64,000 nucleotides of DNA from Deltaproteobacteria bacterium (GCA_016219285.1 JACRNJ010000032.1:21721-85720), one strand, 5' to 3'. Shown: positions 7,066 to 54,586, counted from the stretch's first letter. Notes: generated by a model from the letters alone, not told the origin. Program-made: numbers and translations.

Positions 7066-7128
7066 GCAGGGTGGGCTGTGCCCACCGCAAACATTGTCCT
7101 TTGTAATGGTGGGCAAAGCCCACCCTGC
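7066..7128. repeat. REPIN-like palindromic doublet (gggtgggcNNtgcccacc x2, inverted), copy 1 of 3
   Basis: gcagggtgggctgtgcccaccgcaaacattgtcctttgtaatggtgggcaaagcccaccctgc. Each half is itself a palindrome. Near-identical copies lie at 23151-23212 and 49400-49463. Confidence 0.85.
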
Positions 7129-7696
7129 TATTTTCATCCTCCTTTGTGAGCCAATGGCTCGTGAGGATTTGCCCCGAAAAATAAAAACTAAATGCATTTT
7201 TCGAGCAGGTTAACAAGCGCAGACCCAAAAATCAATTTTTGGAATAAGTATATCTTAAAAAAGAAACGTTTGAAAGGAGTTTTTCAGCAGCCTGCTGGAT
7301 TGCACAGATTAAAACTCCCTGGAATATCTGTGTCCTCGCTTTTCCTAATCTGCGCAATCAAGGCTGTTGGTGTCTTTTTCAACAATTTTTTCTTGTCTTT
7401 GGTTTCAACTCATCCTTGCTGTAAGAATAAAAATACATGCATTTTTATGGTTAACCCTTTGGCCATAGCAAAATGAAAAAGCAAATGGAAAAACGAAAAA
7501 AAGCATGTTGACCCTTAACAAATTATGTGTTTTACTTTTGTAAAATGTTTATCCATTTTTAACAAAGCAGCTGGTTTTGCGAGGCAAAATCAGCAAAAGA
7601 GGTTTAGGCATTGAATAAGCCGTCTAGTTGCATGCCTAACAGCATCTTGCACGGATGGCAGGTTGAATTTTATATGAATGGCTCTCTATAAATAAG

Positions 7697-8674: not shown

Positions 8675-8748
8675 AACATAAAATCCTAATGTCTAATTTC
8701 TAATGAAATACCCACGAGCCTTTGGCTCACAAAGGGGCATGAAAATTA

Positions 8749-8836
8749 ACCCCACCCTCACCTTAATCCTCTCCCTGAGGGAGAGGAGACTTTTTTGTTC
8801 CCTCCCATTCAAGGGGAGGGTTAGGGTGGGGATGGG
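8749..8836. repeat. about 88 bp structured palindromic element (copy A), inverted partner at 9879-9963
   Basis: accccaccctcacc...ctccctgagggagagg...ccctcccattcaaggggaggg...gggtggggatggg. The ends are self-complementary and there are two internal mini-hairpins. Confidence 0.8.
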
Positions 8837-8948: not shown

Positions 8949-9839
8949 ATGGCCAAAACCTTGAAATACGCCTACTACCCCGGTTGTGCATCCCAGGCAG
9001 TAACAAAAGAGGCGAATTCAACAACCCGGAAGGTTGCCAAAATACTTGGTATAGAACTCCATGATATGCCAAAGGCAAACTGCTGCGGTGCTGGCCTCTT
9101 GACCGACTACGACTATGACCTTTCTGTCGCCCTGAATGCAAGGATCTTTGCGCAGGCAGAGGAGATAGGCATGGATATAATGACTATATGCTCCACATGC
9201 CTTATGGTGATGTCAACGGCAAACAGGGATTTAAAAAGCGACCCAAAGCTTTTAGAAAAGACAAATGCAATATTGGCAGCGGCAGGTTTACGATACAATG
9301 GCACTATAGAGGTAAAACAGCTTCTTTGGGTTTTAGCTGAAGATTATGGGTTGGAGAATTTGAAGAAGAAAGTGGCAATGCCGTTAAAGAATCTGAAAGT
9401 AGCTCCATTTTACGGATGCCATTCCTTAAGGCCGTCAGATGCATTGGGGTTTGATGACCCTGAAAGGACGTGGTCTCTGGAGGCGGTAATTACAATACTT
9501 GGGGCAGAGGTAGTAGAGTATGAAGGGAAAAACAAGTGCTGCGGATTTCAGGTGGATATGATAACAGAGGATACGGCAGTGGAGATGACAGGAAAGAGGC
9601 TTTTGGATGCTAAAAATGAAGGTGGAAATTGCATGGTTACACCGTGCCCTTTCTGTCATATAAACCTTGACAATTATCAGGGTATGGCAGAGAGAAAACT
9701 AAATATGAAGATAGGCATGCCGGTTTTTCATCTTGCTCAATTGGTTGGCCTTGCCATGGGTATGACAGCCGAGGATCTGGAGCTGTCAAGGCATCTTGTG
9801 TCAGCGAAGGATGTCCTGAAGGAGGCAAATCTTTTATAG
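8949..9839 (+). CDS. CCG-domain protein (HdrB / SdhE / GlpC-like cysteine-rich subunit)
   Basis: Two CCG-type cysteine-rich domains: CxnCCGAG ... CSTC, and CxnCCGF ... CPFC. It pairs with the upstream FrdB-like gene. Confidence 0.7.
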   Translation: MAKTLKYAYYPGCASQAVTKEANSTTRKVAKILGIELHDMPKANCCGAGLLTDYDYDLSVALNARIFAQAEEIGMDIMTICSTCLMVMSTANRDLKSDPKLLEKTNAILAAAGLRYNGTIEVKQLLWVLAEDYGLENLKKKVAMPLKNLKVAPFYGCHSLRPSDALGFDDPERTWSLEAVITILGAEVVEYEGKNKCCGFQVDMITEDTAVEMTGKRLLDAKNEGGNCMVTPCPFCHINLDNYQGMAERKLNMKIGMPVFHLAQLVGLAMGMTAEDLELSRHLVSAKDVLKEANLL

Positions 9840-9878: not shown

Positions 9879-9963
9879 CCCATCCCCACCTTTGTCCTCC
9901 CCTTGAAGGGGAGGAAACTATTTTCCTCTCCCTCAGGGAGAGGATGAAGGTGAGGGTGGGGTT
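9879..9963. repeat. about 88 bp structured palindromic element (copy B, reverse complement of copy A)
   Basis: cccatccccacc...ccccttgaaggggagg...ctccctcagggagagg...ggtgagggtggggtt. This is the reverse complement of 8749-8836, so the pair brackets the CCG gene in inverted orientation. Confidence 0.8.
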
Positions 9964-10025
9964 AAGGGATTTAATGTAAGGTCTCCTATTTTCTACGCTA
10001 CCAAATCTTTTATTAGGAGGTTAAT

Positions 10026-10820: not shown

Positions 10821-11882
10821 ATGTCATTCAAAGATATTTTAGGACATGATAGAGAAATAAGCATTTTGAAGAAAGCCATTTCAAATAATAGAGTTGCTCA
10901 TTCATTTTTATTTGCTGGGCATGAAGGGATAGGCAAACGGCTTGTTGCCATTTCCGTTGCAAAGGCGCTTAACTGCTCTGCTGCAAACAAGAGCCCCTCC
11001 TTATCGCCATTTAACAAAACAGGATGTGATGGAAGTAATAATGATTTTTGCGGGGTTTGTCAAAACTGCAAGGATATAGAGGCCTCTTCATACAGCGATG
11101 TCTTTCTGATTGAGCCGAGAGAGCCGGAATCCAAGGGCGGGAAAATAGACCATATAGCCGGCACAATAAAGATTGATGCTGTGAGAGATGTTCAGCAAAG
11201 GCTGTCTTACAGGGCAGCAAGAGGCGGCAAAAAGGTGTGTATAGTAGACTGCGCCGAGAAGATGAATAAAGAGGCTCAGAATGCATTCCTTAAAACACTT
11301 GAAGAGCCACCTTCTGATTCCATTATAATATTGGTTGTTAGCGATGGCGGAGCCATTTTGCCGACAATAACTTCTCGCTGCCAAAGGATCAATTTTACCC
11401 CGCTGCCGCAAAATGTTATGCTTGACATAGTCGGAGAACGATTGGGGGCAGCAAAAGAAACTGCTGTGCTGCTTGCTTGTTTGAGTGGAGGCAGCATAGG
11501 AAAGGCATTAAACTTGGATATGGATACCATGCTTGAACAAAGGAAAAAGATTGTTGAAGTATTATCACGGTTATCTTTGGATGATGCAGAAGGAATGTTC
11601 AAAGCAGCTGAAAAGATATCAAAAGGAGAGAGGCCTGTAGAGTCTCTGGAGTTTCTCAAAATATGGTATAGAGATATTGCGATATTAAAGGAAGGTGTGG
11701 AGGATATGGTTGTAAATTCAGACCTCCTGCCTGTTTTAAGACAGCATATGGAGCGCCAAACTTTTTCAAGGCTTATATCCGATTTTCAAATGGTGCTAAA
11801 TGCCCAATCTGATATTATGCCGCCAAGGTATGCAAATAAACAATTGACTATTGAAAATTTGCTTATGCAGCTTGCCACATAA
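10821..11882 (+). CDS. holB: DNA polymerase III subunit delta-prime
   Basis: AAA+ clamp-loader N-terminus (AHSFLFAGHEGIGKRLVA), a zinc-module-like CxxC...CxxC segment, and a SRC-like TSRCQ motif. Follows tmk. Confidence 0.8.
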   Translation: MSFKDILGHDREISILKKAISNNRVAHSFLFAGHEGIGKRLVAISVAKALNCSAANKSPSLSPFNKTGCDGSNNDFCGVCQNCKDIEASSYSDVFLIEPREPESKGGKIDHIAGTIKIDAVRDVQQRLSYRAARGGKKVCIVDCAEKMNKEAQNAFLKTLEEPPSDSIIILVVSDGGAILPTITSRCQRINFTPLPQNVMLDIVGERLGAAKETAVLLACLSGGSIGKALNLDMDTMLEQRKKIVEVLSRLSLDDAEGMFKAAEKISKGERPVESLEFLKIWYRDIAILKEGVEDMVVNSDLLPVLRQHMERQTFSRLISDFQMVLNAQSDIMPPRYANKQLTIENLLMQLAT

Positions 11883-12075
11883 TGATTTACGAATTACGAT
11901 TTACGAATTACGATTTTAAATACTTCACCTTACTTGCAAATCATAAATCTATACACAGCGACATAAATAGTTGCGCATACAGAGCGTCAGAACAAAGCAG
12001 ACCGAGGAGCAACACAGGTATGCGAAGTTATGACGCTCTGTATAAAATCGTAAATCATAATGGAGGATTGATATA

Positions 12076-14383: not shown

Positions 14384-14622
14384 GTCAGCGACATAAATTT
14401 GTAGTATGCCGATTTACCCCGTTAGAAGCTTTTCAATTGAAGATTTTGATGAAACTTTATTAACATTAACTCCCTTAAAATGAACTTCTAACGGGGTTTA
14501 TCGGCGATTTTAAACTTGTCCCCGCAGGCTTTAAGCTGGGATACGCCCATGGGGGCACCCAACAGAAAGTTGGGTCGGGCAAACTACATCTACATTATTT
14601 TTATCGTCAACTATAAAGCCTT
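14384..14622. mobile_element. composite/nested MITE-like element (family: gtagtNtgcc...caaactac) directly after the metG stop
   Basis: Shares both ends (agcgacataaatttgtagt...ggcacccaacagaaNgttgggtcgggcaaactac...atttttNtcgtc) with the 45190-45312 copy. It carries an extra internal inverted-repeat insert (ccccgttagaag...cttctaacgggg). Confidence 0.8.
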
Positions 14623-15174: not shown

Positions 15175-16599
15175 TTGTCAAACCAATATAAACTCATAGA
15201 CACCCATGCCCATCTTGACGACCCTAAATTTAAGAACGACCTGGATGACGTGATAAAAAGGGCAAAGGATGCAGGCGTTGGACATATAATCACTGTAGGC
15301 ACATGGCAAATTGAAAAAGGACTCAAGCATGTTGCAGAGCTTGCCGATGAATACGATTTTATCTATACTGCCCTTGGTGTTCATCCACATGATGCCAAAG
15401 ATGCAAATGATGACGCATTTAATGAAATCAAGGAACTGGCGCTCCATCCAAAGGTTATCGCCATTGGCGAAACAGGGCTTGATTATCATTACGAACACTC
15501 GCCGAGGGATGTTCAAAAAGCAGTATTTGCAAGGCAAATCCAAATAGCCCGTGAATTAAATCTGCCTCTTACCATTCACAGCAGGGAAGCACAGAACGAC
15601 ACTTTGGATATGCTTGCGCAGGAAGGTGTCAGAGACATCGGAGGTGTTTTGCATTGTTTTTCCGGCAGCTATGAAATGGCAAAGAAATGCCTTGATATGG
15701 GTCTCTATCTCTCCTTTACAGGTGTTGTCACATTTCCAAAGGCGGCAAATGTCCATGAGGTTGTAAAAAAGATTCCTATTGAAAGAATGCTCCTTGAAAC
15801 CGATTGCCCGTATCTGGCTCCTGAGCCGCACAGGGGCAAGAGGAATGAACCGGCATTTGTTGCAGAAACTGGAAAAAGGATTTCTGAGATAAAGGGATTA
15901 TCGTTTGACGATGTGGCAAGGATTACCACATTAAATGCAAAGGAACTATTCGGCATTGAGAAAGAAAATAAAGAAACCAGAATAGCGTATCCCATCAGGA
16001 ATTCACTTTACCTCAATATCACCAACCGATGCACCAACTACTGCACATTCTGCGCAAAGCATGCCCCCGCAGGCTTTAAGCGGGGGTCGAATGATTATAC
16101 TGTCAAGGGTCATTATTTGAGATTGAAGCAAGAGCCGGTCTTTCTTGATGTAATAATGGCTGTGGGCGACAGGCCTGCTGAAAAATATAACGAGATTGTA
16201 TTTTGCGGGTTTGGCGAGCCGCTTATAAGACTCGACCTTGTTAAAGAGGTTGGATTGTTTCTAAAAAAACAGGGTTGTAAGATACGGATAGATACAGACG
16301 GCCTTGCCAATCTTGTTCATGAAAGAAATATCCTGCCTGAACTTAAGTTTGTGGATACAATCTCCGTAAGTCTCAATGCCCCGGATTCAGCAACATATCA
16401 AAAACTCATCAAAACACCATTTGGCGACAAGGCATTTCCTGCCATAGTTTGGTTTTTGAAAGAGGCAAAAAAGCATATTTCAACGGTTGTTGCCACCGTA
16501 GTTGCTGTGCCAGAACTTGATATAGAGCCGTGCAGGAAATTGGCCGAAGATGAGCTCGGCGTTGGTTTCAGGGTGAGGGAGTATGATGAGGTGGGATAA
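15175..16599 (+). CDS. tatD: fusion protein: TatD-family metal-dependent hydrolase (N-terminal) plus TatD-associated radical SAM domain (C-terminal)
   Basis: TTG start. N-terminus DTHAHLDD ... GLDYHY ... ETDCPYL is a TatD fold. The C-terminal part of about 200 aa has CTNYCTFC (CxxxCxxC) and GFGEPL, a radical SAM core. It forms a single uninterrupted ORF of 474 aa downstream of metG, as Bacillus metS-yabD. Confidence 0.8.
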   Translation: MSNQYKLIDTHAHLDDPKFKNDLDDVIKRAKDAGVGHIITVGTWQIEKGLKHVAELADEYDFIYTALGVHPHDAKDANDDAFNEIKELALHPKVIAIGETGLDYHYEHSPRDVQKAVFARQIQIARELNLPLTIHSREAQNDTLDMLAQEGVRDIGGVLHCFSGSYEMAKKCLDMGLYLSFTGVVTFPKAANVHEVVKKIPIERMLLETDCPYLAPEPHRGKRNEPAFVAETGKRISEIKGLSFDDVARITTLNAKELFGIEKENKETRIAYPIRNSLYLNITNRCTNYCTFCAKHAPAGFKRGSNDYTVKGHYLRLKQEPVFLDVIMAVGDRPAEKYNEIVFCGFGEPLIRLDLVKEVGLFLKKQGCKIRIDTDGLANLVHERNILPELKFVDTISVSLNAPDSATYQKLIKTPFGDKAFPAIVWFLKEAKKHISTVVATVVAVPELDIEPCRKLAEDELGVGFRVREYDEVG

Positions 16600-20320: not shown

Positions 20321-20373
20321 GTAGTTTGCCCATTTATGGGCGTCTTAAAAATCGCCGATAAATCGGCAACTAC
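20321..20373. mobile_element. MITE-like palindromic element, canonical 53 bp copy
   Basis: gtagtt-tgcccatttatgggcg-tcttaaaaat-cgccgataaatcggca-actac. It has terminal inverted repeats and two internal perfect palindromes. Confidence 0.85.
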
Positions 20374-22721: not shown

Positions 22722-22790
22722 GTAGTGTGCCCATTTATGGGCGTATTTAAAAACGTAGATAAACCGATAAGCTGCAAATCATTGACTACA
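22722..22790. mobile_element. MITE-like element, degenerate copy
   Basis: gtagtgtgcccatttatgggcg...cgtagataaaccgataagc...gactacaatc. Confidence 0.6.
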
Positions 22791-22797
22791 ATCAAGA

Positions 22798-23763
22798 TTG
22801 CCGATGTTAAACAAACCAAAGAAAAATTCTAAAACGCCGATAAATCGGCAACTACAATCTTACGGTTTTTCTCCCTTAAAAAGATTCAGCCAAAACTTTC
22901 TCACCGATGAACGGATTGCCGGCAAGATTATTGATGCGTTTGAACTGAAAGAGGACGATACGGTAATAGAAATAGGCCCCGGTCTTGGCATGCTGACAGA
23001 GCGGCTGTTGGACACAGGGGCAAAGGTTCTGGCAATAGAGATAGATAAGGGTTTTGCAGATATTCTTGATAAAAGATTCGGCAGCAGGGATAATTTTGAA
23101 AAAATAATATGTCAAGATGCATTAAAAATTTCGTATAAAGAATTGTTTTGTAGGGTGGGCTGCGCCCACCAAAAACAGACGGATAAAAATGGCGGGCAAA
23201 GCCCGCCCTACAACGATAACAAGAAGCTTGCCCCTGCGGGCATAAAACAGTGGTTTAAGGTTATTTCCAATCTCCCTTACAACATCTCAACACCCATTAT
23301 TTTTAAACTTCTTGAGGAGCGCGAGATATTTTCAATGTTCCTGCTTATGCTGCAAAAAGAGGTGGCCGAACGGATTGTATCGCAGCCTGACACAAAAGAG
23401 TACGGTGTTTTGTCTATATTTGTTCAACTGTTTGCAGATGTAAATATAGAGTTTGATGTGCCGCCATCTTCATTTTATCCAAAACCAAATGTCTATTCTT
23501 CTGTTGTTAGGTTCACTATATTGCAGAAACCGAGAGTTGAAATATATGACATCAGCTTTTTTAAAAGAGTTGTTAAGGCGTCTTTTGGGCAGAGGAGGAA
23601 AACCCTGCTAAATGCCTTAAAGGTTTTAAAACTGACAACCCAGGAGATTAGAAATGCCTTAGAGCAATCTGGTATAGAGCCGCAGGCAAGGGGGGAGACC
23701 CTTAGCCTTAAAGAATTTGGAATATTAAGCAATAACTTGAAGAAAATAGCAGAACATATTTAA
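22798..23763 (+). CDS. rsmA: 16S rRNA (adenine1518/1519-N6)-dimethyltransferase KsgA/RsmA with in-frame REPIN-derived insert
   Basis: Conserved motifs FSQNFL, IEIGPGLGMLT and NLPYNIST are present. A half-MITE (22832-22860) encodes part of the N-terminus. The full REPIN-like doublet at 23151-23212 is translated in frame as CRVGCAHQKQTDKNGGQSPPYN. Confidence 0.85.
   Translation: MPMLNKPKKNSKTPINRQLQSYGFSPLKRFSQNFLTDERIAGKIIDAFELKEDDTVIEIGPGLGMLTERLLDTGAKVLAIEIDKGFADILDKRFGSRDNFEKIICQDALKISYKELFCRVGCAHQKQTDKNGGQSPPYNDNKKLAPAGIKQWFKVISNLPYNISTPIIFKLLEEREIFSMFLLMLQKEVAERIVSQPDTKEYGVLSIFVQLFADVNIEFDVPPSSFYPKPNVYSSVVRFTILQKPRVEIYDISFFKRVVKASFGQRRKTLLNALKVLKLTTQEIRNALEQSGIEPQARGETLSLKEFGILSNNLKKIAEHI
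23151..23212. repeat. REPIN-like palindromic doublet, copy 2 of 3, located inside the rsmA coding sequence
   Basis: tagggtgggctgcgcccaccaaaaacagacggataaaaatggcgggcaaagcccgccctaca. Confidence 0.85.
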
Positions 23764-24233: not shown

Positions 24234-24899
24234 ATGTCCATTTCCGTCATAATTCCAACCTTGAATGAAGAAGATAATCTTGAACATACCTTGAAATCAG
24301 TTGGCCAAGATGCGGAGATTATTATTGCAGACGCCGGAAGCAGTGATTCCACAATCAAAATAGCCAATGGGTTCACAGACAAGATTATCATGTCGGAAAA
24401 AGGAAGAGGCGCTCAGATGGATAACGGGGCAAGAATGGCGACAGGCGATATATTCCTTTTCCTACATGCAGACACAAGGCTTCCTGATGGCTGGATGGAA
24501 AAAGTTGCAGAAGCGCTAAAAGATGCTAAAGTTGTTGGAGGGGGGTTCAGGTTAAAAATAAACTCAGGAAAATTCTCTTTTAGTATTATAGAGGCAATAG
24601 TTAATCTTCGGTCAAGACGCCTTGGCTTTATCTACGGGGACCAGGCTATATTTGTCAGAAGGGATGTCTTTTTATCGGTTGGAGGTTTTATGGGGCTTCC
24701 ACTGATGGAGGATGTGGACTTAATGAGAAGGCTCAAGAAGGTTGGCAAGGTTATTTTAGTGGATGCGCAGGCCTCTACATCTCCGAGGCGCTGGGAGAAG
24801 AGAGGTGTTTTGAGGACAACTTTAAGAAACTGGATGTTTTTGAGCCTTTATTATCTTGGTGTTTCTCCGCAAAAATTATATAAATGTTATTATCAGTAG
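24234..24899 (+). CDS. family 2 glycosyltransferase
   Basis: N-terminal pattern SVIIPTLNEE...IIADAGSSD...GRGAQMDNG...GDIFLFLHADT is a GT-A fold with a DxD region. The ATG at 24234 is preferred over the ORF-track start at 24177, which lies in the hairpin. Confidence 0.7.
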   Translation: MSISVIIPTLNEEDNLEHTLKSVGQDAEIIIADAGSSDSTIKIANGFTDKIIMSEKGRGAQMDNGARMATGDIFLFLHADTRLPDGWMEKVAEALKDAKVVGGGFRLKINSGKFSFSIIEAIVNLRSRRLGFIYGDQAIFVRRDVFLSVGGFMGLPLMEDVDLMRRLKKVGKVILVDAQASTSPRRWEKRGVLRTTLRNWMFLSLYYLGVSPQKLYKCYYQ

Positions 24900-25014
24900 T
24901 CTGCCGATTTATCGGCGATTGTAACTCAAACCTTCAGATTTGAGTTTTTCAAGGCTAAAGCCTTGAGTTACAAAATGCGCCCATAAATGGGCAGGCTGCA
25001 AAAATATTAACTAC
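24896..25014. mobile_element. MITE-like element, inverted orientation with nested internal hairpin insert
   Basis: gtagtctgccgatttatcggcg...(gtaactcaaa...ttgagttac insert)...cgcccataaatgggcag...aactac. Confidence 0.8.
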
Positions 25015-29489: not shown

Positions 29490-29530
29490 TTATTGGGCTT
29501 ATTAAAGGCGCCGATAAATCGGCACACTAC
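29476..29530. mobile_element. MITE-like element, degenerate copy
   Basis: gcagttgccgcatttattgggc...ggcgccgataaatcggcacactac. Confidence 0.55.
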
Positions 29531-29996: not shown

Positions 29997-31298
29997 TTAT
30001 ACAAACCTTACATCCATTATATGCGTAGAGCACGAAATACACGGGTCATACGCCCTGACCAGTGTCTCAATATTTCTCACTATCTCATGCTTTGGCTTAT
30101 CTAAAATTGTCGGCACAAAACCCCTTAAATCTTCTTCTATCATGCGCAGGTTTTGGGCAGTCGGTATAATGCAGTTTGCATCTGTTACAATGCCGTTCTT
30201 GTCAATAGTATATTCATGATACAGGGTTCCCCTCGGCGCCTCAACAATGCCTACGCCTGTGCTGCGCCCGGAGTGCGGCAGCTTTGGTTTTTTTAATTCT
30301 TCTTTTTTAAGGCCGCTTGATAAGAGTTTATCTATCAGCTTTATGGCATCCTCTGTGCAGTGGAATGACTCCACAAGTTGTGCGGTATTATTCATAAACG
30401 GGTTGAAGCAGAGGGGAGTAAGGCCCAGTTCTTTTGCAGCCTTTTTTGCCTTTGGAGAAAGCTGTTTAAAGTTATTGCATACCCTCGCAAGGGCGCCTAC
30501 CATATAAATACCTTTCTTACTTTTTGTATGTTTTGCGGTGGAGTAAGGGACAATGCTCTCTTTTATAAGTTTTCTGTAGTCCCTTGGTTTAGTGCTGTAT
30601 TTCAGGTTTGAAACCATATTGCCGTCATAGAAGGCAAACTCCCCCTCTTGTTTCAGCGACAGATATTCTCTTTCTTTAGAATATTCCAATGTCTTAAAGC
30701 CTTTGAAAAGTTCAAGCGTGGCCTCCAAATCTTCAAATGAATCTTCAAGTTTTTTCTTCAAGGTTTTCAACTCGCTGATTTTCGGCAGATGGGCAACGCC
30801 TCCTGGAAAAAGGGAAATAGGATGTATGTGTCTCCCTGCAATGATTTCGCATATCTCATTGCCAAGTTTTTTAAGTCGCAGTCCGCGTGTTACAGCATCA
30901 GGATTGGTCTTTGTCAAAGGCACGACACTGCCAACCTTGAAAAAATCCGGCAAGACAAGAAAATAGAGATGAAGGATGTGGCTCTGGAGTATTTCTCCAT
31001 GAAAGGCGAGTTTTCGCAATAAAGTTGCCTGCTTTGAAATGGTTATGCCGAGGGCATCCTCAATCGCCTTGAGCGATGCCGATGTATGGCTTACAGCGCA
31101 TATCCCGCATATCCTTGACATGATATGCTGAGCCTCATCATACTTTCTGCCTCTGAGCATTGCCTCATAAAACCGTGGAGACTCCACAATCTCAAGCTTC
31201 AGCTCTTTTATGACGCCCTTCTTAATATCAATAACCACATTCCCGTGTCCTTCAACACGGGTGATGTGGTGGATGTCTATTTTAATGTTTTTGTGCAT
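29997..31298 (-). CDS. [NiFe] hydrogenase large subunit (group 3-like, cytoplasmic)
   Basis: L1 motif RICGICAVSH near the N-terminus and L2 motif DPCISCSTH near the C-terminus. Only 7 residues follow the His. Length 433 aa. Confidence 0.9.
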   Translation of the reverse strand: MHKNIKIDIHHITRVEGHGNVVIDIKKGVIKELKLEIVESPRFYEAMLRGRKYDEAQHIMSRICGICAVSHTSASLKAIEDALGITISKQATLLRKLAFHGEILQSHILHLYFLVLPDFFKVGSVVPLTKTNPDAVTRGLRLKKLGNEICEIIAGRHIHPISLFPGGVAHLPKISELKTLKKKLEDSFEDLEATLELFKGFKTLEYSKEREYLSLKQEGEFAFYDGNMVSNLKYSTKPRDYRKLIKESIVPYSTAKHTKSKKGIYMVGALARVCNNFKQLSPKAKKAAKELGLTPLCFNPFMNNTAQLVESFHCTEDAIKLIDKLLSSGLKKEELKKPKLPHSGRSTGVGIVEAPRGTLYHEYTIDKNGIVTDANCIIPTAQNLRMIEEDLRGFVPTILDKPKHEIVRNIETLVRAYDPCISCSTHIMDVRFV

Positions 31299-31362
31299 AA
31301 GAGGTTTATATGAGTATTGAATGACTCTGTTTGTTCTGCCTGTAAGGGTCTGAAGGCAGCCA

Positions 31363-31554
31363 TCATGTCTTTTCGTATGCCTTTATGAAATCGTCTCTTG
31401 AAATGCCAGCTTGTGTGCAAATTGTTCTTAATGTGGAAGCCTTTATTTTGGGATGATTTGGCATGGTCAAAGGAGTTTTACTACCATCAGGGTTCTCCCG
31501 CACCATTGAGATATGTTCTTTTTCACGAACGATACGGAAACCTAAGATTTCCAA
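31363..31554 (-). CDS. hicA: HicA-family toxin (mRNA interferase)
   Basis: 63 aa with the pattern GF...E..HI.M....DGSKTPLTMPNHPKIKASTLRTICTQAGIS, typical of HicA/YcfA. Immediately downstream of hicB. Confidence 0.6.
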   Translation of the reverse strand: MEILGFRIVREKEHISMVRENPDGSKTPLTMPNHPKIKASTLRTICTQAGISRDDFIKAYEKT

Positions 31555-31602
31555 TGCCTTTACTACTTTCCGCTTTGTGGCGTCAACTGGAAACTTAGGT
31601 AT

Positions 31603-31827
31603 TTAAGCATCTACCCCTGTTTCGGCAACAAATGCCTCAAGGATAGGTGGTTCAATATCAAGGCCTTCTTCTCCAAAAGTCTCTATATGAAAACGGATTG
31701 CGGATTTAACATCCGCCAACGCCTCTTCGTATGTATCACCTTGGCCAACTACAATACTCTTGATTCCTAAAGGATATGCAACATAGCCATCAGTATGTTT
31801 TTCCACTATTATTTTATACTGTTTCAT
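31603..31827 (-). CDS. hicB: HicB-family antitoxin
   Basis: 74 aa with YKIIVEKHTDGYVAYPLGIKSIVVGQGDTYEEALADVKSAI, typical of the HicB N-domain (UPF0150). Confidence 0.65.
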   Translation of the reverse strand: MKQYKIIVEKHTDGYVAYPLGIKSIVVGQGDTYEEALADVKSAIRFHIETFGEEGLDIEPPILEAFVAETGVDA

Positions 31828-31890
31828 ACCATCTCCTTTGATTTTCTTTTGATTGAATTATATAACAAAAAAATGATTTGTTCATCATTT

Positions 31891-32100
31891 TTAAATGTTG
31901 CCTAACGTGATTGGTCTTTGTGAAGTCCCGCCCTTGGCGGGATTTGGGCGAATGAAGTGAGTCACAAACACCCTGTTATCTGCCGTTGCAGGCAATCTTA
32001 AAGTAAATCCATCCAATTTTTCTTCAAATGCTAAAAAGCAAGACCTGACCCCCATGCCCTCTGCTGGCACAGATACCAATCTTTCGCGTGACAATTTAGA
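31891..32100 (-). pseudogene. vapC: C-terminal half of a PIN-domain (VapC) toxin gene, displaced by the RAYT element insertion
   Basis: ...LDGFTLRLPATADNRVFVTHFIRP resembles the PIN C-terminal D..IAATA...LVT.N..DF region. It lies immediately outside the left inverted repeat of the RAYT element, while the N-terminal half lies outside the right inverted repeat. Confidence 0.45.
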
Positions 32101-32101
32101 G

Positions 32102-32723
32102 GTAGGTTGGGTTGAGCAAAGCGAAACCCAACAATTCATTCATACCCTACATCCTCATCAAATTGAATCTCACAACCTGCCCCCCAATCGCTCTTGTAAA
32201 TGCCCTGTTTAACATAACGATGAAAACTTGAATATGCCCAGTCGCGTGGCAATGTTACCAGACTATGTTTAACAGGATTGTAATGGATGTAATTACAATG
32301 CGCCTCAAAATCTTTCTCGTCTCTAATCTGATGCTCCCAAAACCGCCTCTGCCAAACCGCTTGTTCTCCCTTACTTAATTTTGAGGCAGATCTAAAGCCT
32401 TTATATCCATCCTGACATTGTCTGCTAAAATAGCTTTTTATAAGCCCCCATCGCAGAGAAAAATCATTATCGTTGTGCGGCAATGTCCAGATACAGTGAA
32501 TATGATCGGGCAGCAAAACAAATGCGTCAATCCGAAAGGTGTGTCTGTTGATAACATACTGAAACGCTTCTTTTATCAACCGTATGTTTGCTTCATGGCA
32601 TAAAATCCTTTTCCTCCCGTGCGTTACCACCGTAAAGAAAAATGCCGCCCCTTTTGCCTTTGACCTGCGATAACGCATTGCTTTTTATGATTATGTTGGG
32701 TTTCGTTCCTCAACCCAACCTAC
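32102..32723. mobile_element. RAYT (REP-associated tyrosine transposase) unit bounded by hairpin inverted repeats
   Basis: Left end is gtaggttgggttgagcaaagcgaaacccaaca. Right end is tgttgggtttcgttcctcaacccaacctac, its inverse, and each end is an 8-bp-stem hairpin. The unit encloses one transposase gene. Confidence 0.8.
32136..32678 (-). CDS. REP-associated tyrosine transposase (IS200/IS605 TnpA-like, Y1 HUH family)
   Basis: HuH motif LPDHIHCIW and catalytic Tyr region NYIHYNPVKH. Length 180 aa, which is longer than IS200 TnpA and typical of RAYTs. Confidence 0.8.
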   Translation of the reverse strand: MRYRRSKAKGAAFFFTVVTHGRKRILCHEANIRLIKEAFQYVINRHTFRIDAFVLLPDHIHCIWTLPHNDNDFSLRWGLIKSYFSRQCQDGYKGFRSASKLSKGEQAVWQRRFWEHQIRDEKDFEAHCNYIHYNPVKHSLVTLPRDWAYSSFHRYVKQGIYKSDWGAGCEIQFDEDVGYE

Positions 32724-32898
32724 CAACTTCAGTAAGGGTTATGACAGAAGAAAAAGCGCTCAATCTCTCTGACTGAAAAGAATCAACCACTTCTTTGGCA
32801 ATTGATCCAAACTGAGGATTAGCTTCGATGTAATAAATGATGGGCGCTGTATCTATGAAAATAGTATTTATTTGATCAAGTTCATCCGAGAGGGTCAT
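32710..32898 (-). pseudogene. vapC: N-terminal half of PIN-domain (VapC) toxin gene truncated at the RAYT element boundary
   Basis: IFIDTAPIIYYIE has the first PIN Asp and ITLTEV has the second acidic residue. The ORF ends inside the right inverted repeat of the RAYT unit. Confidence 0.5.
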
Positions 32899-33119
32899 AT
32901 CCGATCCTCTCTCAAACGATTAACATACTCTTGAGCATCTTCACCTTTCCATAACCCTTTCCCAAGGCCATAGAGTTTATTCCAGTCAAGTTCCTTTTTC
33001 ATAGCAAGTCCTGTCTTGCCTAATTGATGAACAAGCCTTTCTACTAATTTTAACTGTTCCTGAGGCGTAAGTTTTCCTATCTCTTTTCCAATCTTTTCTA
33101 AGGTAACTCCTTTTTTCAT
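32895..33119 (-). CDS. putative antitoxin partner of the disrupted PIN toxin
   Basis: 74 aa, 4-nt overlap with the vapC fragment, positioned upstream as antitoxins usually are. Family not recognised with confidence. Confidence 0.35.
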   Translation of the reverse strand: MKKGVTLEKIGKEIGKLTPQEQLKLVERLVHQLGKTGLAMKKELDWNKLYGLGKGLWKGEDAQEYVNRLREDRI

Positions 33120-33577: not shown

Positions 33578-34342
33578 TCATTTGCCTTCCCCATGCCTCT
33601 CCCACCCTCCATACAAATCAAATTTGTTTACTACCCCTTCTGCTGTCAATCCGTATCGTTTCAAGGTTTCCTCATGCGCCTCTATATTCGGGTCATCAAC
33701 CAGTCCTCTACATCCCCAGCATACACAGCCGTAGGTAACACATATTGCGGAGCAGCCTGCGCGTGTAACCGGGCCCACGCATGTCATGCCTTTTTCAAAT
33801 ACACAGATATTTCCTGCCATCTTGCAGTCAACACATACAGGGTAATTGGGTATTTCCGGTTTTTTGCCAAGAAGCAGAGACTTGAGCACATCCAGGAATT
33901 CTGATTTTGTTATGGGACAGCCGTGGATGTAGTAGTCTACAGGGATTACAGCATCAATCGGCCTTGCAGGTATGGTATCAAGGTGTTTGTATTTTTTAGC
34001 CTTGTCGCCATAAACGACTCTTTGCACCTCTTCCATGGGGAATCTATTTTTAAGGCAATTCAGCCCTCCGGTTGCAGAACATGCGCCTAAGGCCACAATA
34101 ATCTTTGCCTTTTCCCGTATCTTTTTAACCTCTTCTATCTCATGGTTTCTGCTAACGCTTCCTTCAATGAAGGCAATGTCATAGTCATCCCGTTTTTCAT
34201 CAATGGCCTCTCTGAAGTTTACGATGTCAACAAGGCTTAATATATCGGGGAGTTCGTCCTCGCATGCAAGGACCTGAAGCTGGCAGCCTTCACAGCAGGT
34301 GAAGGAGAAAAAGGCGAACTTGGGTTTGTGTTTGGTTTTCAT
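33578..34342 (-). CDS. [NiFe] hydrogenase small subunit (group 3-like, no Tat signal)
   Basis: N-terminal proximal-cluster motif FTCCEGCQLQV, as in group 3 delta/MvhG/FrhG small subunits. There are additional C-terminal Cys clusters. No twin-arginine leader is present. Confidence 0.85.
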   Translation of the reverse strand: MKTKHKPKFAFFSFTCCEGCQLQVLACEDELPDILSLVDIVNFREAIDEKRDDYDIAFIEGSVSRNHEIEEVKKIREKAKIIVALGACSATGGLNCLKNRFPMEEVQRVVYGDKAKKYKHLDTIPARPIDAVIPVDYYIHGCPITKSEFLDVLKSLLLGKKPEIPNYPVCVDCKMAGNICVFEKGMTCVGPVTRAGCSAICVTYGCVCWGCRGLVDDPNIEAHEETLKRYGLTAEGVVNKFDLYGGWERHGEGK

Positions 34343-37428: not shown

Positions 37429-37483
37429 GTAGTTTGCCCATTTATGGGCGTTTTTTAAAAGCGCCGATAAATCGGCAGACTAC
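37429..37483. mobile_element. MITE-like element, canonical copy
   Basis: gtagtttgcccatttatgggcgttttttaaaagcgccgataaatcggcagactac. Confidence 0.85.
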
Positions 37484-40164: not shown

Positions 40165-41376
40165 TTGAAGAGAATATACCTTGATAACAATGCAACAACA
40201 CCAATCCACCCTGAGGTTTTTGATGCGATGCTTCCATATCTGAAACATGAATTTGGAAATCCATCCAGCATCCATTGGGCAGGGAGGAATCCCAGAAGGG
40301 TTGTTGATGATGCGAGAGAGAAAGTGACGAAGCTTCTCAATTGTGATGCAAATGAAATCATTTTCACAAGCTGCGGGTCAGAAAGTAACAATCTTGCTAT
40401 AAAGGGAGTTGCCGAATCAAAAAAAGATAAAGGCAACCATATTATTACTACTAAAGTGGAGCATCCAGCCGTTTTGAGTACTTGCAAATACCTTGCAAAA
40501 AACGGTTTTGATGTAACCTTTCTTGATGTTGATAATCATGGCATGCTGGATTTAGACCAGCTTAAAAAGGCAATAACTCCAAAGACAATACTTATTACGA
40601 TAATGTTTTCAAATAATGAGACGGGAGTGATATTTCCCATAGAGGAGATAGGCAAGATTGCAAAAGAGCATAATATTCCTTTCCATACCGATGCTGTTCA
40701 GGGTGTGGGAAAGGTTCCTATAGATGTAAAGAAAATGAATGTAGACCTGTTGACGCTTTCAGGCCATAAGCTCTATGCGCCAAAGGGGATTGGCGCACTC
40801 TATGTCAAAAGAGGTGTAAGGTTGGTGCCATTAATTCATGGCGGTCATCAGGAGCGGAACAGAAGGGGCGGCACAGAAAATGTCGCCGGTATTGTTGCAC
40901 TTGGAAAGGCGTGCGAGATTGCCGCCAGAGACATGGAGCAAGAGATAAAACATATTACAGCTTTAAGAGACAGACTTGAAAAAGGACTGATGCAAAGGGT
41001 AACGCATGTGCGGCTTAATGGCCATCCAATAGAGAGGATTCCTAACACGGTAAACCTAAGTTTTGAATTTGCAGAGGGAGAGTCGCTGCTTTTAAACCTT
41101 GATATGAAGGGGATAGCTGCATCGTCTGGTTCGGCATGCACATCCGGAACATTGGAGCCGTCCCATGTGCTTGTGGCTATGGGTGTTCCGATGGAGGCAT
41201 CTCACAGTTCTGTGCGATTTAGCCTTGGGCGTGGGAATACGATAGAGGATATTGACTATGTTATAGATGTCTTGCCGGCAATGGTGGAAAGGATGAGGAG
41301 CATGTCGCCGCTTTATTCTACGATTACCGGAAAAGGTGAGAATATAACGTTCAGTGAAAGCAATTGCAGCCATTAA
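40165..41376 (+). CDS. iscS: cysteine desulfurase IscS/NifS
   Basis: PLP Lys motif SGHKLYAPKGIGALYV and active-site Cys loop SSGSACTSG. Length 403 aa. Confidence 0.9.
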   Translation: MKRIYLDNNATTPIHPEVFDAMLPYLKHEFGNPSSIHWAGRNPRRVVDDAREKVTKLLNCDANEIIFTSCGSESNNLAIKGVAESKKDKGNHIITTKVEHPAVLSTCKYLAKNGFDVTFLDVDNHGMLDLDQLKKAITPKTILITIMFSNNETGVIFPIEEIGKIAKEHNIPFHTDAVQGVGKVPIDVKKMNVDLLTLSGHKLYAPKGIGALYVKRGVRLVPLIHGGHQERNRRGGTENVAGIVALGKACEIAARDMEQEIKHITALRDRLEKGLMQRVTHVRLNGHPIERIPNTVNLSFEFAEGESLLLNLDMKGIAASSGSACTSGTLEPSHVLVAMGVPMEASHSSVRFSLGRGNTIEDIDYVIDVLPAMVERMRSMSPLYSTITGKGENITFSESNCSH

Positions 41377-41509
41377 GAAAGATTCAAGATTTAAGATACA
41401 AGATTTAAGATACAAGATGCAATATGCAAGATTCAATATTTATAATTATTTTTGGCTGCAATCTGAAACTTGTAACTTGCAACCATATTCATTGAAAGGA
41501 GATTGAGAT
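41377..41509. repeat. intergenic tandem simple repeat (aagatttaagatacaagat units) plus tgcaa-type tail
   Basis: gattcaagatttaagatacaagatttaagatacaagatgcaatatgcaagattcaa...ctgcaatctgaaacttgtaacttgcaacc. Confidence 0.8.
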
Positions 41510-45189: not shown

Positions 45190-45312
45190 GGCAGCGACAT
45201 AAATTTGTAGTCTGCCGATTTATCGGCGGTTTTAAAATACGCCCATGGGGCACCCAACAGAAGGTTGGGTCGGGCAAACTACAGCTACTTATTTTTGTCG
45301 TCCACTATAGAA
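45190..45312. mobile_element. MITE-like element (long form) directly after the rnc stop
   Basis: agcgacataaatttgtagtctgccgatttatcggcgg...cgcccatggggcacccaacagaaggttgggtcgggcaaactacagctac...atttttgtcgtc. It is the un-nested counterpart of 14384-14622. Confidence 0.8.
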
Positions 45313-49047: not shown

Positions 49048-49269
49048 TTATGCCATTACCAGTTCTAATTTTTCTTTTGTAGCAGTAGGTAGCCTTACAG
49101 GAGCAAAAAAACTTTCAGGATATAAATAATCCTCCCCTGATTCATCAATAACTCTTATTTGGTGATGTTTTTCAGCCATCCTGTCCGTCAACACCTCATA
49201 TAGTTTTCTTGCCTCCAATGACGATTCGTAGCCACGATTATCTACACATATCATGAAATGCTTTCTCAT
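49048..49269 (-). CDS. small hypothetical protein
   Basis: ORF only, 73 aa. Sits in a decayed region next to a small ORF disrupted by a REP-like element. Confidence 0.3.
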   Translation of the reverse strand: MRKHFMICVDNRGYESSLEARKLYEVLTDRMAEKHHQIRVIDESGEDYLYPESFFAPVRLPTATKEKLELVMA

Positions 49270-49399
49270 AGTTACCTCCTCATAAATACCTTTTGATTTT
49301 TATTTCTTTCTTACCTATGCCGTGTCCTTCATACCAGTGAACTTCCGCCTTCAAAACAGCGCCATCTTCCAGTTCTACATTGCAAATGCCTTTGATCTG

Positions 49400-49463
49400 G
49401 TAGGGTGGGCTATGCCCACCTTTTTGATTGTGCCGCAATTTTGGTGGGCATAGCCCACCCTAC
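49400..49463. repeat. REPIN-like palindromic doublet, copy 3 of 3, interrupting a small ORF
   Basis: gtagggtgggctatgcccacctttttgattgtgccgcaattttggtgggcatagcccaccctac. The minus-strand ORF 49375-49566 reads through it and is then frameshifted. Confidence 0.85.
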
Positions 49464-49583
49464 TACCTTTTCCATGCACCTTGTTTAAGCGATTCAAATT
49501 CTTTATTCCATGCCCTGTTGCAATAATTTCAATCTCCAGAATTTCCCCTTTTATCTTAAAAGGCATATCTCATTTAACCATTT

Positions 49584-49978: not shown

Positions 49979-52900
49979 ATGCTAAAAAACCCATTACATA
50001 TGCAAGAAAATACAGCCTTGCTTCATGTAAAAGGTTTAGGCTTTTCTGAAGAGGCAAAGACGCTCCAGAACCTAAGGCTTTTAAATGAAACACCTTTTAA
50101 AGAACATATTGAAGAGCTGATAAATCTTATTCTAACCGCACCCTCTCCTGATGATGCCATGAATAATATGGAGAGAGTAGTTTCACAGCTTTACGTAAAA
50201 AGCATAAATGCATTTATAGCTGATAGAGAAAAACTTAAAAATCTCGTCATTATATGCGGCTCATCTAATCTTTTATCAAATACTATTGTAACCAATCTTA
50301 TCTATGCAGAGCAGCTTTTTTTAGAACAAGGCCTTTATAAGAAAAAGGATATAACACTTTTTCTCAAAGAATTAGAAATGGAGGCTCAAAACCTCTCCAA
50401 TCTTAACTCTGCTGCCACGGCGCTTCGTCTTTACAAACAAAAGGAGTATCTGAGGATAGGGACAAGAGATATTCTTGGACTGGCGTCCATGCAAGAAACA
50501 ACATTGGAACTGTCCGACCTTGCAAGCGCATGCCTTGAGATTGCATACAGATTTTGCCTCAAACAACTCAAGGCAGAATACGGGACGCCTCTCTACAAAG
50601 ATATTGACGACAAAGATGTGGAATCAGAATTTGCAGTCATAGGAATGGGAAAGCTGGGCGGCAGGGAGTTAAACTTTAACTCAGATATTGATATTATCTA
50701 TATATATTCCTCTGACAAGGGGGAAACATCCGGAATAGAAAATCCTCCCTCACCCCCCTTTACTAAAGGGGGGATGGGGGGATTTAATAACAAAATATCA
50801 CTCCATGCCTTTTATGTAAAACTCTCAGAGATGATAACAAAAATCATAGGTAATGTGACAGAGGATGGAATTGTATTCAGGGTTGATTTGAATCTCAGGC
50901 CTGAGGGAAAGGGCGGCGACCTTGCCAACTCTATCAGAAGCGCAGAGATTTATTACGAATCATGGGGGCAGGCATGGGAGCGGGCAGCTATGATAAAGGC
51001 AAGGGTTGTTGCAGGAAGCTTAAAACTCGGAGAGGCATTTTTAAGTATGATTGAGCCCTTTGTCTACCGCAGATATCTTGACTTTACGGCTATTGAAGAG
51101 ATACGGGGCATGAAGGAAAAGATTGACGTAAGCCTGCTGCGGGCAGCCCCCGATGCAGTTGATGTCAAATTAGGGGTTGGAGGAATACGAGAGATAGAAT
51201 TCTTTGTTCAGGCTATTCAACTTATAAACGGAGGAAAGGATAAGGCTATCAGGGAGAAGAACAGCCTCCGTGCTATAGAGTTACTAAAACAAAAGGGATA
51301 CATTAATGAACAAGATGCATCTGCAATAAGCAATGCATATATATTTTTAAGAAATTTAGAGCACAGGATTCAGATTGTGGAAGGGAGGCAGACACAGGTA
51401 ATTCCATCAAAGGCAGGGGAGATAGAAAGGCTTGCCAGAATGCTTGGATTTGAAGATACCGCTTCGCCCACTCCACTTGAAGCAGGGGGAAAGATAAGCG
51501 CGGCGGAACAATTCCGGGACGAATATAAAAAACAGACCAACATTGTGCATGAGATATACAACACGCTTTTTTTCAAGGCTTCAAAGGATCTGGATGAAAA
51601 AATATCAAAATATGTGATCCTTATCCTTGGCGAAAGTTTAGATAAGCAGGAAGTGGTCTCAAGATTATCTCAATCCGGCTTCCATGAGCCGGAAGCTGCC
51701 TATGAAAACCTTAAGCTCTTAAAAGACGGGCCTCCCTTTGCACACTTTCCTGTCAGGACAAAGATGCTTTTAAAAAAGATAGCCCCGTTTCTCCTGACCT
51801 GCATTATGGAGTCCCCTGCCCCGGACATGGCACTTAATCACCTTGAACGATTTCTTTCCGCCATCGGCGCAAGAACCACCTTCTATTCGCTCCTTGCAGA
51901 AAACAGGAAGGTAATGGAGCTGCTCGTCAAATTATTTGGCACAAGCATATTTTTGTCAATGGCAATCATTGAGCATCCTGAAAATATTGATACCCTTCTC
52001 TCGCCTGAATTAAACAAGCCATTCAAGAATAAACAAGAGCTTCTGCAAGAACTTTCAGCAATGCTTGATGCGGCTGCAGACCATGAAGAACATCTGGATT
52101 GTATAAGGAGGTTCAGAAATGGCGAGATATTAAGGATAGGGATACATGACATATTTGAAGAACTAAAACCGGCAGAGGTCTCGAGGCAGATTACCTGTCT
52201 CGCAGACGTTTGTCTGATCAAGGCATATGAGATTTCATTGCTGGAGTTGAAAAAAAGATTCGGCACTCCCGGACAAGACGATGGTGAAAATGCTCAGTTT
52301 GCCGTCCTTGCCCTTGGCAAGATGGGCAGCGAGGAACTCATCTACAGCTCGGACCTTGATATAATCTTTATCTATTCAAAAGGCGGAGAAACTTCAGGGC
52401 CGAAGGTCATATCAAATCACGAGTTTTTTGCAAAGTTGTCGCAGCGCATTATATCAACCCTGTCAATCATTACCAGGGAAGGGGTTGCCTTTAAAATTGA
52501 TGCGCGGCTCAGGCCATCCGGCAGCTCAGGCCCCCTTGTCATATCCGAGGATACCTTTATAAAATACCATAAGGAAACCGCTCATATGTGGGAAAAGCAG
52601 GCCATGCTCAAGGCAAAATTTGCTGCAGGGGACGATAAGTTCGGGGCTAAGGTGTTAGATGAAATACAAAAACATATATACGCAGCAGCGCCAAATCATG
52701 AGGATTTGAAAGAACTTTATCGGATTAGGAAACGGATGGAGGCGGAGATTGCTAAAGAAGATTTTGGAAAGTATAATATCAAATTTGGAAAGGGAGGGCT
52801 TGTAGATGTGGAGTTTGCTGTTCAGGTTCTTCAGTTAAAGTTCGGCAGGCAAAAACTATCTATAAGAAAACCAAACACTGCTGATGCAATACATGCATTA

Positions 52901-54513: not shown

Positions 54514-54586
54514 AAAAAAATTGTAGATTTACGAATTACGAATTACGATTTAAAATCTAAAATCATAAATCTAAAATAGTAAATCC
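54514..54586. repeat. intergenic tandem simple repeat (attacga / aaatcta units)
   Basis: gtagatttacgaattacgaattacgatttaaaatctaaaatcataaatctaaaatagtaaatc. Confidence 0.8.

Follow-up and report, generated by a model that had tools for sequence, protein, structure and literature searches.

The window analysed here is a 64-kb stretch of DNA from a deltaproteobacterial MAG. It holds three palindromic doublets (d1 to d3) and a RAYT gene with hairpins of its own at both ends:

7066-7128, no strand assigned: doublet d1, 63 nt, intergenic; family A REPIN, head-to-head dimer
23150-23211, no strand assigned: doublet d2, 62 nt; family A REPIN inside ksgA
49400-49463, no strand assigned: doublet d3, 64 nt; family A REPIN within an ORF of a 76-aa family
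32136-32678, minus strand: RAYT gene, 180 aa, intact; HUH motif H59-I-H61, catalytic tyrosine Y130
32102-32132, plus strand: family C hairpin GTAGGTTGGGTT-N11-AACCCAAC, ending 3 nt beyond the RAYT stop codon; one end of the REPtron
32695-32723, minus strand: opposite end of the REPtron, a family C hairpin GTAGGTTGGGTT-N9-AACCCAAC placed 16 nt before the RAYT start codon
32102-32723, minus strand: whole REPtron (hairpin-RAYT-hairpin), 622 bp; homology begins and ends at the GTAG heads

The three doublets were found where the original prediction had placed REPINs, at 7066, 23151 and 49400, with the extents given above. Their repeated unit, family A, is GTAG-GGTGGGC-NNN-GCCCACC, that is, a 7-bp stem with a 3-nt loop and GTAG in front. 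In doublet form, this becomes G(T/C)AG-GGTGGGC-NNN-GCCCACC, a spacer of 20-22 nt, and GGTGGGC-NNN-GCCCACC-CT(A/G)C, with the GTAG termini outermost, and the text of PMC3733652 calls such GTAG-outside dimers head-to-head dimers. The inverted pair and the gap of about 20 nt were therefore as predicted, whereas the palindrome had to be redrawn with regard to its stem, its loop and the preceding GTAG. When searched with up to two mismatches, GGTGGGCNNNGCCCACC matched six times in the 64-kb window, as compared to 0.07 matches expected from shuffles. Upon addition of the GTAG head, with up to three mismatches allowed, all 11 matches fell within the d1, d2 and d3 sites (0 expected). Since every GTAG-headed match was located there, the window contains no family A singlets at this threshold, and each of its REPs sits in a doublet, this being a statement on three doublets with poorly conserved spacers. 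The units display the properties of GTAG-tagged REPs, namely a terminal GTAG or GYAG, a 7-bp stem with a 3-nt loop, and a copy number of six in 64 kb. Likewise, all three doublets display those of REPINs: two inverted REPs, a short spacer and a sequence that can fold into a single long hairpin.

The spacers of d1, d2 and d3 are similar in length (21, 20 and 22 nt, respectively) despite their poorly conserved sequence. Both heads of d1 read GCAG/CTGC, not GTAG/CTAC, while d2 and d3 have the GTAG/CTAC form. Degeneracy to GYAG is described for some GTAG families in the text of PMC3733652, and the GCAG of d1 is within that range. The right arm of d2, GGCGGGC..GCCCGCC, carries a compensated double change, by which the short REP stem is still paired but the long hairpin is not; in d3, both arms are perfectly complementary. 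Folding as single-stranded DNA gave -27.9 kcal/mol for d1, -19.4 for d2 and -28.1 for d3, with z-scores of -7.9, -4.5 and -9.7, respectively. Having lost both GTAG heads, d1 is probably immobile. Because the spacers are poorly conserved and d1 is without GTAG, the activity of the doublets may be old rather than current. Directly adjoining d1 is one copy (7130-7170) of a 41-nt inverted repeat pair, the other copy lying at 8706-8746; the two are 88% complementary and have a hairpin of their own, TGTGAGCC..GGCTCGTGAGG.

The RAYT ORF scored 193.3 bits against the NCBIfam model REP_Tyr_transpos (NF047646; cut-off 80) and also matched Pfam Y1_Tnp. An identical protein has been deposited as MBI5327650.1 from a Deltaproteobacteria bacterium MAG. 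Residues 2-167 could be aligned with E. coli TnpA-REP (4er8) at E = 1.8e-36, and in this alignment H59-I60-H61 and Y130 of the window RAYT fall upon H59-M60-H61 and Y115 of 4er8. The catalytic residues are thus intact, and the earlier concern that the RAYT could be a pseudogene can be set aside. The predicted gene and its HIH motif were indeed found; a predicted YxxxY was not, as the local tyrosine motif at Y130 is Y-I-H-Y. With E. coli TnpA-REP (Messing et al. 2012, PMC3479197), the window RAYT has in common the HUH motif, the catalytic tyrosine and the N/H metal ligands (YNPVKH). It differs by 15 extra residues placed between the region of the HUH motif and that of the tyrosine, and by a predicted cognate hairpin with a perfect 8-bp stem and a 9-11-nt loop instead of an imperfect BIME-type REP. 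By analogy with this enzyme, the window RAYT would be expected to cleave and join its cognate REP on single-stranded DNA. No second RAYT-like sequence is present within the 64-kb window.

The RAYT gene shows the organisation of a REPtron, being bracketed by inverted GTAG hairpins, as is the case at 24 homologous loci with type C hairpins (see below). Within the window, these flanking hairpins and the dispersed copies are not a cognate pair, since the former read GTAGGTTGGGTT..AACCCAAC and the latter GTAGGGTGGGC..GCCCACC. The stems of the two families have different sequences, and their loops are of different size, with 3 nt in family A versus 9-11 nt in family C. The proposal that the flanking hairpins belong to another family was correct in this respect, but the families are not unrelated: both are GTAG-tagged, they have GTAGG-TGGG in common, and 10 of their first 12 bases are alike (GTAGGTTGGGTT versus GTAGGGTGGGCT).

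Comparison of the REPtron with that of locus L122 showed 94.5% identity over 638 aligned positions including gaps, or approximately 96% when a 13-nt duplication is left aside. The homology starts at ..TTGGTAGGTTGGG and stops at ..CCCAACCTAC, and the sequences outside these borders are unrelated. In its other context, which was found on at least 24 contigs from many samples, the REPtron is accompanied by genes for a phosphomutase, DUF4139, BrnT and RF-1 in the order phosphomutase, DUF4139, RAYT, BrnT, RF-1. The RAYT alleles in this context encode an intact protein of 180 aa, a protein of 173 aa (due to the 13-nt duplication) or one of 140 aa. Since homology in two contexts is bounded by the GTAG heads, this comparison indicates that the hairpin-RAYT-hairpin unit has moved as a whole at least once. 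An IS200-type tnpA gene lies 4 kb downstream of the RAYT gene in the other context. This second Y1 gene of contig L218 (9674-10120) was considered as a type A RAYT and rejected; it encodes an ordinary IS200-type TnpA of 148 aa with an HVH motif.

In the window, the REPtron is part of a toxin-antitoxin islet (31363-33119), which is located between the genes for the large (29997-31298) and small (33578-34342) subunits of a NiFe-hydrogenase. The islet comprises, in addition to the RAYT gene:

31363-31554: HicA
31603-31827: HicB-like gene
32710-32898, minus strand: truncated PIN/VapC ORF, residues 1-58 native; the frame ends inside the REPtron hairpin
32895-33119: antitoxin-like ORF

A 147-aa homologue from Nostoc aligns with the VapC ORF over residues 1-65, and searches of the 58-aa PIN fragment against Pfam and NCBIfam returned nothing significant. 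The C-terminal half of vapC is absent throughout the 64-kb window. For this reason, we conclude on a truncation of vapC at the hairpin edge, and not on an event in which the REPtron simply entered a complete vapC gene. The strain has also been assembled independently: Logan contig L001 (SRR12113393; 2.4 kb), which was the one Logan match in an exact-protein search with the RAYT, corresponds to positions 30281-32723 of the window and ends exactly at the outer edge of the RAYT hairpin, at 32723. Exact-protein searches with two other ORFs, among them ksgA read from a TTG start, gave no match. Such an endpoint would be expected if the sequence past the hairpin were repeated or variable in that population.

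Hairpin types and RAYT clades across genomes

Genomes, one per species, were scanned for family A with GTAGGGTGGGCNNNGCCCACC, which yielded at least 120 stretches. The original prediction would have been called into question if no further hairpin copies existed, and family A turned out to have many in other genomes. Among the matches listed, the hosts include Cyanobacteria, Planctomycetota, Poribacteria, Nitrospirota, Thermodesulfobacteriota, Gammaproteobacteria and others, and the hairpins occur as singlets as well as doublets, the latter with spacers of 12-79 nt. A RAYT is also encoded at four of the family A loci among these matches, and the genes at L073 and L054 are bracketed by inverted family A hairpins. 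The same arrangement, with inverted family A hairpins on both sides of a RAYT, was found at L145, L148, L155, L161, L163, L168 and L199.

A metagenome scan with the window RAYT identified at least 80 further loci. Altogether, 82 RAYT loci from metagenomes and genomes were scored by taking the strongest GTAG hairpin on each side and assigning types by regular expressions; 10 of them were not typable. Type C flanks were assigned at 24 loci and type A flanks at 11. In the clade of the window RAYT, the members of which are approximately 54-99% identical to it, every typed flank was of type C, reading GTTGGGTT / GTAGGTTGGGT..ACCCAAC. Type C flanks were also observed for some more distant homologues with 47-53% identity. 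Overall, the window RAYT is 48-99% identical to RAYTs with type C flanks, as compared to 43-54% for RAYTs with type A flanks (GGGTGGGC). Homologues in this latter range of 43-54% are flanked by GTAGGGTGGGC-NNN-GCCCACC or by the variants GTAGGGTGGGT (with a long loop), GTAGGGTGCGC and GTAGGATGCGG.

In a neighbour-joining tree of the RAYTs, which carries no support values and in which type C is not monophyletic, all type A loci except L054 were placed in one clade, separate from that of the window RAYT. In 54 of 72 comparisons, a RAYT and its nearest neighbour had flanks of one type, whereas 14.9 were expected, and none of 2000 label permutations reached 54. As judged from these flanking sequences, hairpin type tracks RAYT clade. 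No type A hairpins were found at the long-flanked type C RAYT loci, the flanks of which extended over up to 10 kb. Likewise, no type C hairpins away from RAYT genes were detected in the window or in the flanks, of up to 10 kb, of the long-flanked type C loci. For RAYT groups in general, abundant flanking 16-mers are described in only some groups (PMC5581495). Going by the group descriptions of Bertels 2017, the scarcity of the flanking hairpin is closer to Groups 1 and 4 than to Groups 2 and 3, which we take as a lead only.

These data provide a rule for annotation: which REP family a RAYT serves can be predicted from its flanking hairpin, as was the case throughout the 82 loci, which come from many phyla. 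They also imply that a nearby RAYT should not be presumed to be the driver of the nearest REPINs.

Intragenic doublets in ksgA and in a small gene

Two of the three doublets lie within coding sequences, which involve the following genes:

22804-23763, plus strand: ksgA/rsmA, 319 aa as annotated (MBI5327639.1); carries d2 and a further palindrome-encoded insert of 9 aa
49280-49566, minus strand: ORF of a 76-aa family, into which d3 introduces a split and a frameshift; leading gene of a conserved cassette of two genes
49048-49269, minus strand: partner gene of the split ORF; second gene of the cassette

As predicted, one doublet is inside ksgA. The ORF stays open through d2, and its product is recognised by the ksgA equivalog model. 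In a comparison with the solved KsgA structure of B. subtilis, residues 9-116 and 154-316 could be aligned, and between strand beta-4 and the NLPY motif there are 37 residues in the window KsgA versus 11 in the B. subtilis structure. When the 14 closest homologues were aligned, the insert CRVGCAHQKQTDKNGGQSPPY amounted to exactly 20 additional codons relative to the empty alleles. Besides the window KsgA, P0122 and P0130 (77% and 69% identical, respectively) contain it, whereas it is absent from the other aligned homologues, including P0136 and P0140, the nearest relatives of P0130. An AlphaFold model of KsgA was poor overall (mean pLDDT 55.7 with a 15-sequence alignment), so that nothing particular to the insert can be read from the low confidence of residues 120-149.

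The 62-nt d2 element including its spacer is identical to the window at 61 of 62 positions in L204 and at 58 of 62 in L202, the ksgA genes of which are 70% and 76% identical to that of the window, respectively. The filled allele of L204 and the empty allele of L206 are approximately 96% identical except for some 120 nt around the element. Within this stretch, L204 is 92% identical to the window but only 68% to L206. The patch takes in non-REPIN codons on both sides of the element, which argues against an independent insertion at the same ksgA site. Moreover, the d2 spacer variant was found nowhere else among the sequences compared. Together with the pattern of the patch, this shows, at the level of the alignments, that the filled ksgA allele reached the L204 lineage by short-patch homologous recombination. 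In comparison with L205, the identity of the window ksgA shifts at d2 from approximately 92% upstream to approximately 75% downstream, which places the element at a mosaic or recombination boundary. The copy is no clean insertion, as the neighbouring target bases differ from those of the empty alleles, and a simple model of insertion leaves this unexplained.

One may go further and regard the ksgA REPIN not as a passive scar but as an allele that is spreading, as a conversion patch of approximately 120 nt together with its flanking codons, among deltaproteobacterial lineages that are 25-30% diverged in ksgA, with the type C REPtron as an autonomous, IS-like and not domesticated element; this wider view we put forward only tentatively, and we consider it rather doubtful. 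Spread of the allele could be due to local recombination promoted by the hairpin, at which the identity of the window ksgA to L205 also shifts, or the 20-residue loop could be of benefit to KsgA. That a conserved rRNA methyltransferase tolerates an in-frame REPIN, which was subsequently recombined across lineages, bears on the contribution of "extragenic" repeats to protein variation.

Other small inserts were observed in ksgA. A second palindrome-containing insert of 27 nt (23224-23252) encodes LAPAGIKQW, and it is present only in some homologues, namely P0121, P0125, P0131 and P0133. The sites 14512-14540 and 16057-16085 also belong here; a similar hairpin, CCCCCGC-AGGCTTTAA-GCGGGGG, is located inside a 474-aa ORF (15175-16599), in which it encodes APAGFKRG. 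The ksgA homologues P0125 and P0126 have yet other small inserts.

The small ORF hit by d3 was analysed by tblastn searches of plasmids and by searches of the protein database. When d3 was spliced out, the encoded protein was 57% identical to a 78-aa protein on the Thiodictyon plasmid pTs485, on which the adjacent gene of the cassette is conserved as well (48% identity). In the protein database, 227 homologues were found; among the entries listed, almost every one is 76 aa in length, and the best has 87% identity. Pfam and NCBIfam searches with the split ORF and its partner gene returned nothing significant. Relative to two intact orthologous loci, approximately 17 nt at the d3 site are replaced by 73 nt, which consist of GTA, the 64-nt element and six altered bases. 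This net change of +56 nt is a frameshift, in agreement with the predicted disruption of a small ORF at 49375-49566. The gene, which is intact in relatives, is a pseudogene here. As for d2, the insertion is not a clean one: target bases are altered relative to the empty alleles, which the simple model leaves unexplained.

What moves the doublets

Since all typed members of the clade of the window RAYT have type C flanks and family A flanks a separate clade, the A doublets most likely depend on a second RAYT outside the window. The original prediction had left two options, and the comparative data favour this one. We give a probability of roughly two in three to the overall reading that the doublets are GTAG-tagged REPINs, that the window RAYT is not their driver but part of a separate family C REPtron, and that an A-clade RAYT resides elsewhere or has since been lost. 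In the text of PMC3733652, species with several GTAG families are stated to have repeat-specific REPtrons, and REPtrons are also reported in species without dispersed repeats.

The course of events that we propose is modelled on E. coli TnpA-REP and on the transposases of IS200/IS605. As an HUH/Y1 enzyme, a RAYT would bind the hairpin and the 5' GTAG on single-stranded DNA and would then cut and rejoin the strand, by which the doublet would be copied to new sites as a non-autonomous unit. The A doublets would be served by an A-clade RAYT elsewhere in the genome, or by one that was later lost, while the window RAYT is contained in a separate, compact REPtron with the family C ends GTAGGTTGGGTT-N9-11-AACCCAAC. 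After insertion, d1 lost both GTAG heads, d2 was kept in frame in a loop of KsgA, and d3 destroyed its small gene; d2 later moved between lineages by homologous recombination. The sequence comparisons demonstrate the architecture, the borders of the REPtron, the correspondence of RAYT clade and hairpin type, the effects of d2 and d3 on the reading frames, and the recombination patch. We infer the transposition chemistry, the existence of the second RAYT and the specificity of RAYTs, the latter from their association with flanking hairpins.

Alternatively, the doublets could be orphan relics, the RAYT having been lost from the lineage and the copies spreading passively by vertical descent and homologous recombination. 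The missing GTAG heads of d1, the divergence between the arms of d2, the dissimilar spacers of the three doublets and the spread of the ksgA copy as a recombination patch instead of by clean transposition would all fit this idea, and the text of PMC3733652 reports REPtron loss by deletion in many E. coli strains. However, d3 has perfectly complementary arms and an intact GTAG, and its target gene is intact in relatives that are 86-87% identical at the protein level, which suggests that d3 was inserted fairly recently. Furthermore, the presence of three copies in 64 kb without decayed singlets argues against a long decay. We consider the orphan reading unlikely.

A still smaller chance is given to the idea that the window RAYT itself mobilises the A doublets via the GTAGG-TGGG head, its own hairpins being merely a diverged variant. 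Indeed, cross-recognition between families A and C is conceivable because they have this head in common, and 10 of their first 12 bases agree behind a GTAG tag in both. The gene is also the sole RAYT in 64 kb, and a single REPtron of E. coli can contain REPs of different hairpin consensus, y and z1 (PMC3479197). Yet, none of the window-clade RAYTs among the 82 loci has type A flanks and the reverse was not found either, no A hairpins accompany type C RAYT loci over flanks of up to 10 kb, and the loops of 3 and 9-11 nt are far apart. As to the common tag, mutation of any GTAG base abolished binding and cleavage by E. coli TnpA-REP, but GTAG alone was insufficient, since hairpin identity also mattered (PMC3479197). 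Finally, we find it hardly credible that the doublets are immobile structural or regulatory palindromes of the host, such as terminators or protein-binding sites: roles of REPs in DNA gyrase targeting and mRNA stability are reported in the text of PMC3733652, but two of the three copies are within coding sequence, one of them destroying its gene, filled and empty alleles at both intragenic sites contradict this interpretation, and family A hairpins flank RAYT genes in other genomes.

The preferred reading, in which the doublets rely on an A-clade RAYT, is in line with known systems. The REPIN-RAYT systems of Pseudomonas fluorescens and E. coli (Bertels and Rainey 2011, PMC3116915, PMC3337134) likewise have an inverted hairpin pair with a short spacer that can form a long hairpin, arms that are conserved above the spacer, and a RAYT flanked by inverted REPs. 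In those systems the doublet is the repeated unit, and the three copies in the window are all doublets. In contrast to those systems, the window RAYT is flanked by hairpins other than the dispersed ones, and its host is not a gammaproteobacterium but is represented by an uncultured deltaproteobacterial MAG. Moreover, intragenic positions account for two of the three copies, and the RAYT unit behaves as a discrete, relocatable element instead of a fixed domesticated gene.

The GTAG REP superfamily and its REPtrons (Di Nocera, De Gregorio and Rocco 2013, PMC3733652) provide the closest set of parallels in the text of that paper: a terminal GTAG, stems of 6-13 bp with loops of 2-3 nt, head-to-head dimers 20-100 bp apart, the coexistence of several GTAG families in a genome, each served by its specific REPtron, REPtrons that lack dispersed copies, and dimers within genes that contribute 20-30 amino acids. 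The motif GGGTGGGC..GCCCACC does not appear among the 24 numbered families in the main text and supplements of that paper, its consensus figure excepted. Nor is ksgA among the target genes that its text names; ksgA or a dimethyltransferase is absent as a target from its supplements, and those parts of the paper contain no description of the lateral spread of an intragenic copy. A literature text search for GTAGGGTGGGC and related strings returned unrelated papers only. The Rickettsia palindromic elements (RPE) are comparable in being in-frame palindromes in a housekeeping gene, with about 20 residues in a loop and an open ORF. However, according to the text of PMC3733652, RPE-4 and RPE-6 are CGTC-type repeats that are linked to no transposase gene, whereas the window element is a REPIN of the GTAG type, for which cognate RAYTs are known; the two are alike in the way they act and not as members of one family.

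REPIN and REPtron biology has been worked out mostly in Gammaproteobacteria. The present findings widen its host range to an uncultured deltaproteobacterial lineage that is crowded with several small palindromic families. None of them overturns current understanding. The main features all have precedent in GTAG-REP, REPIN and REPtron biology. What is added here is the link between hairpin type and RAYT clade over 82 loci, together with one REP family that spans many phyla, an in-frame REPIN allele of ksgA that was moved between lineages by recombination, and a REPtron the ends of which could be sharply delimited in two genomic contexts.

Other palindrome families in the window

Another family of GTAG-tagged REPs and REPINs (family B), of the form GTAGTNTGCC[C/G]ATTTAT[G/C]GGC (consensus GTAGTNTGCCSATTTATSGGC), is represented in the window by at least nine units. 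Several of its sites are head-to-head dimers:

20321-20373: family B
22722-22778: family B
22836-22855: family B
24896-24916: family B
29510-29530: family B
37429-37483: family B
45207-45227: family B

One family B unit overlaps the annotated 5' end of ksgA and encodes KTPINRQLQ. The family B hairpin was not found as a RAYT flank at any of the 82 RAYT loci. At 14401-14590 and 45206-45290, palindromes are nested, the loops of family B REPs being interrupted by other small hairpin elements. The nested inserts comprise approximately 80 nt bounded by CCCCGTTAGAAG/CTTCTAACGGGG, and a CACCCAAC-AGAAR-GTTGGGTC hairpin in the loop of the right arm. This nesting in family B loops suggests that hairpin loops are preferred targets. 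The CACCCAAC..GTTGGGTC hairpins (14552-14601 and 45247-45296) were also considered as dispersed copies of family C, which was rejected on account of their opposite arm order and the absence of an adjacent GTAG.

Many intergenic regions contain tandem heptamers of the CAAGATT/CAAGATG, TTACGAA or ACAACTTGCA type:

2616-2675: tandem heptamers
11862-11935: tandem heptamers
41362-41456: tandem heptamers
54511-54570: tandem heptamers
55982-56067: tandem heptamers
57833-57946: tandem heptamers

A further hairpin family, TCCYCTC(C)-N3-4-(G)GAGRGGA, occurs at 8746-8836, 9879-9965, 33317, 33375, 38558 and 50753-50773, and composite copies of approximately 90 nt form inverted repeats around a CCG-domain gene (8949-9839). 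A related hairpin, CCCCCCTTTACTAAAGGGGGG, lies in frame in glnE, where it coincides with approximately 17 extra residues relative to E. coli GlnE (1v4a).
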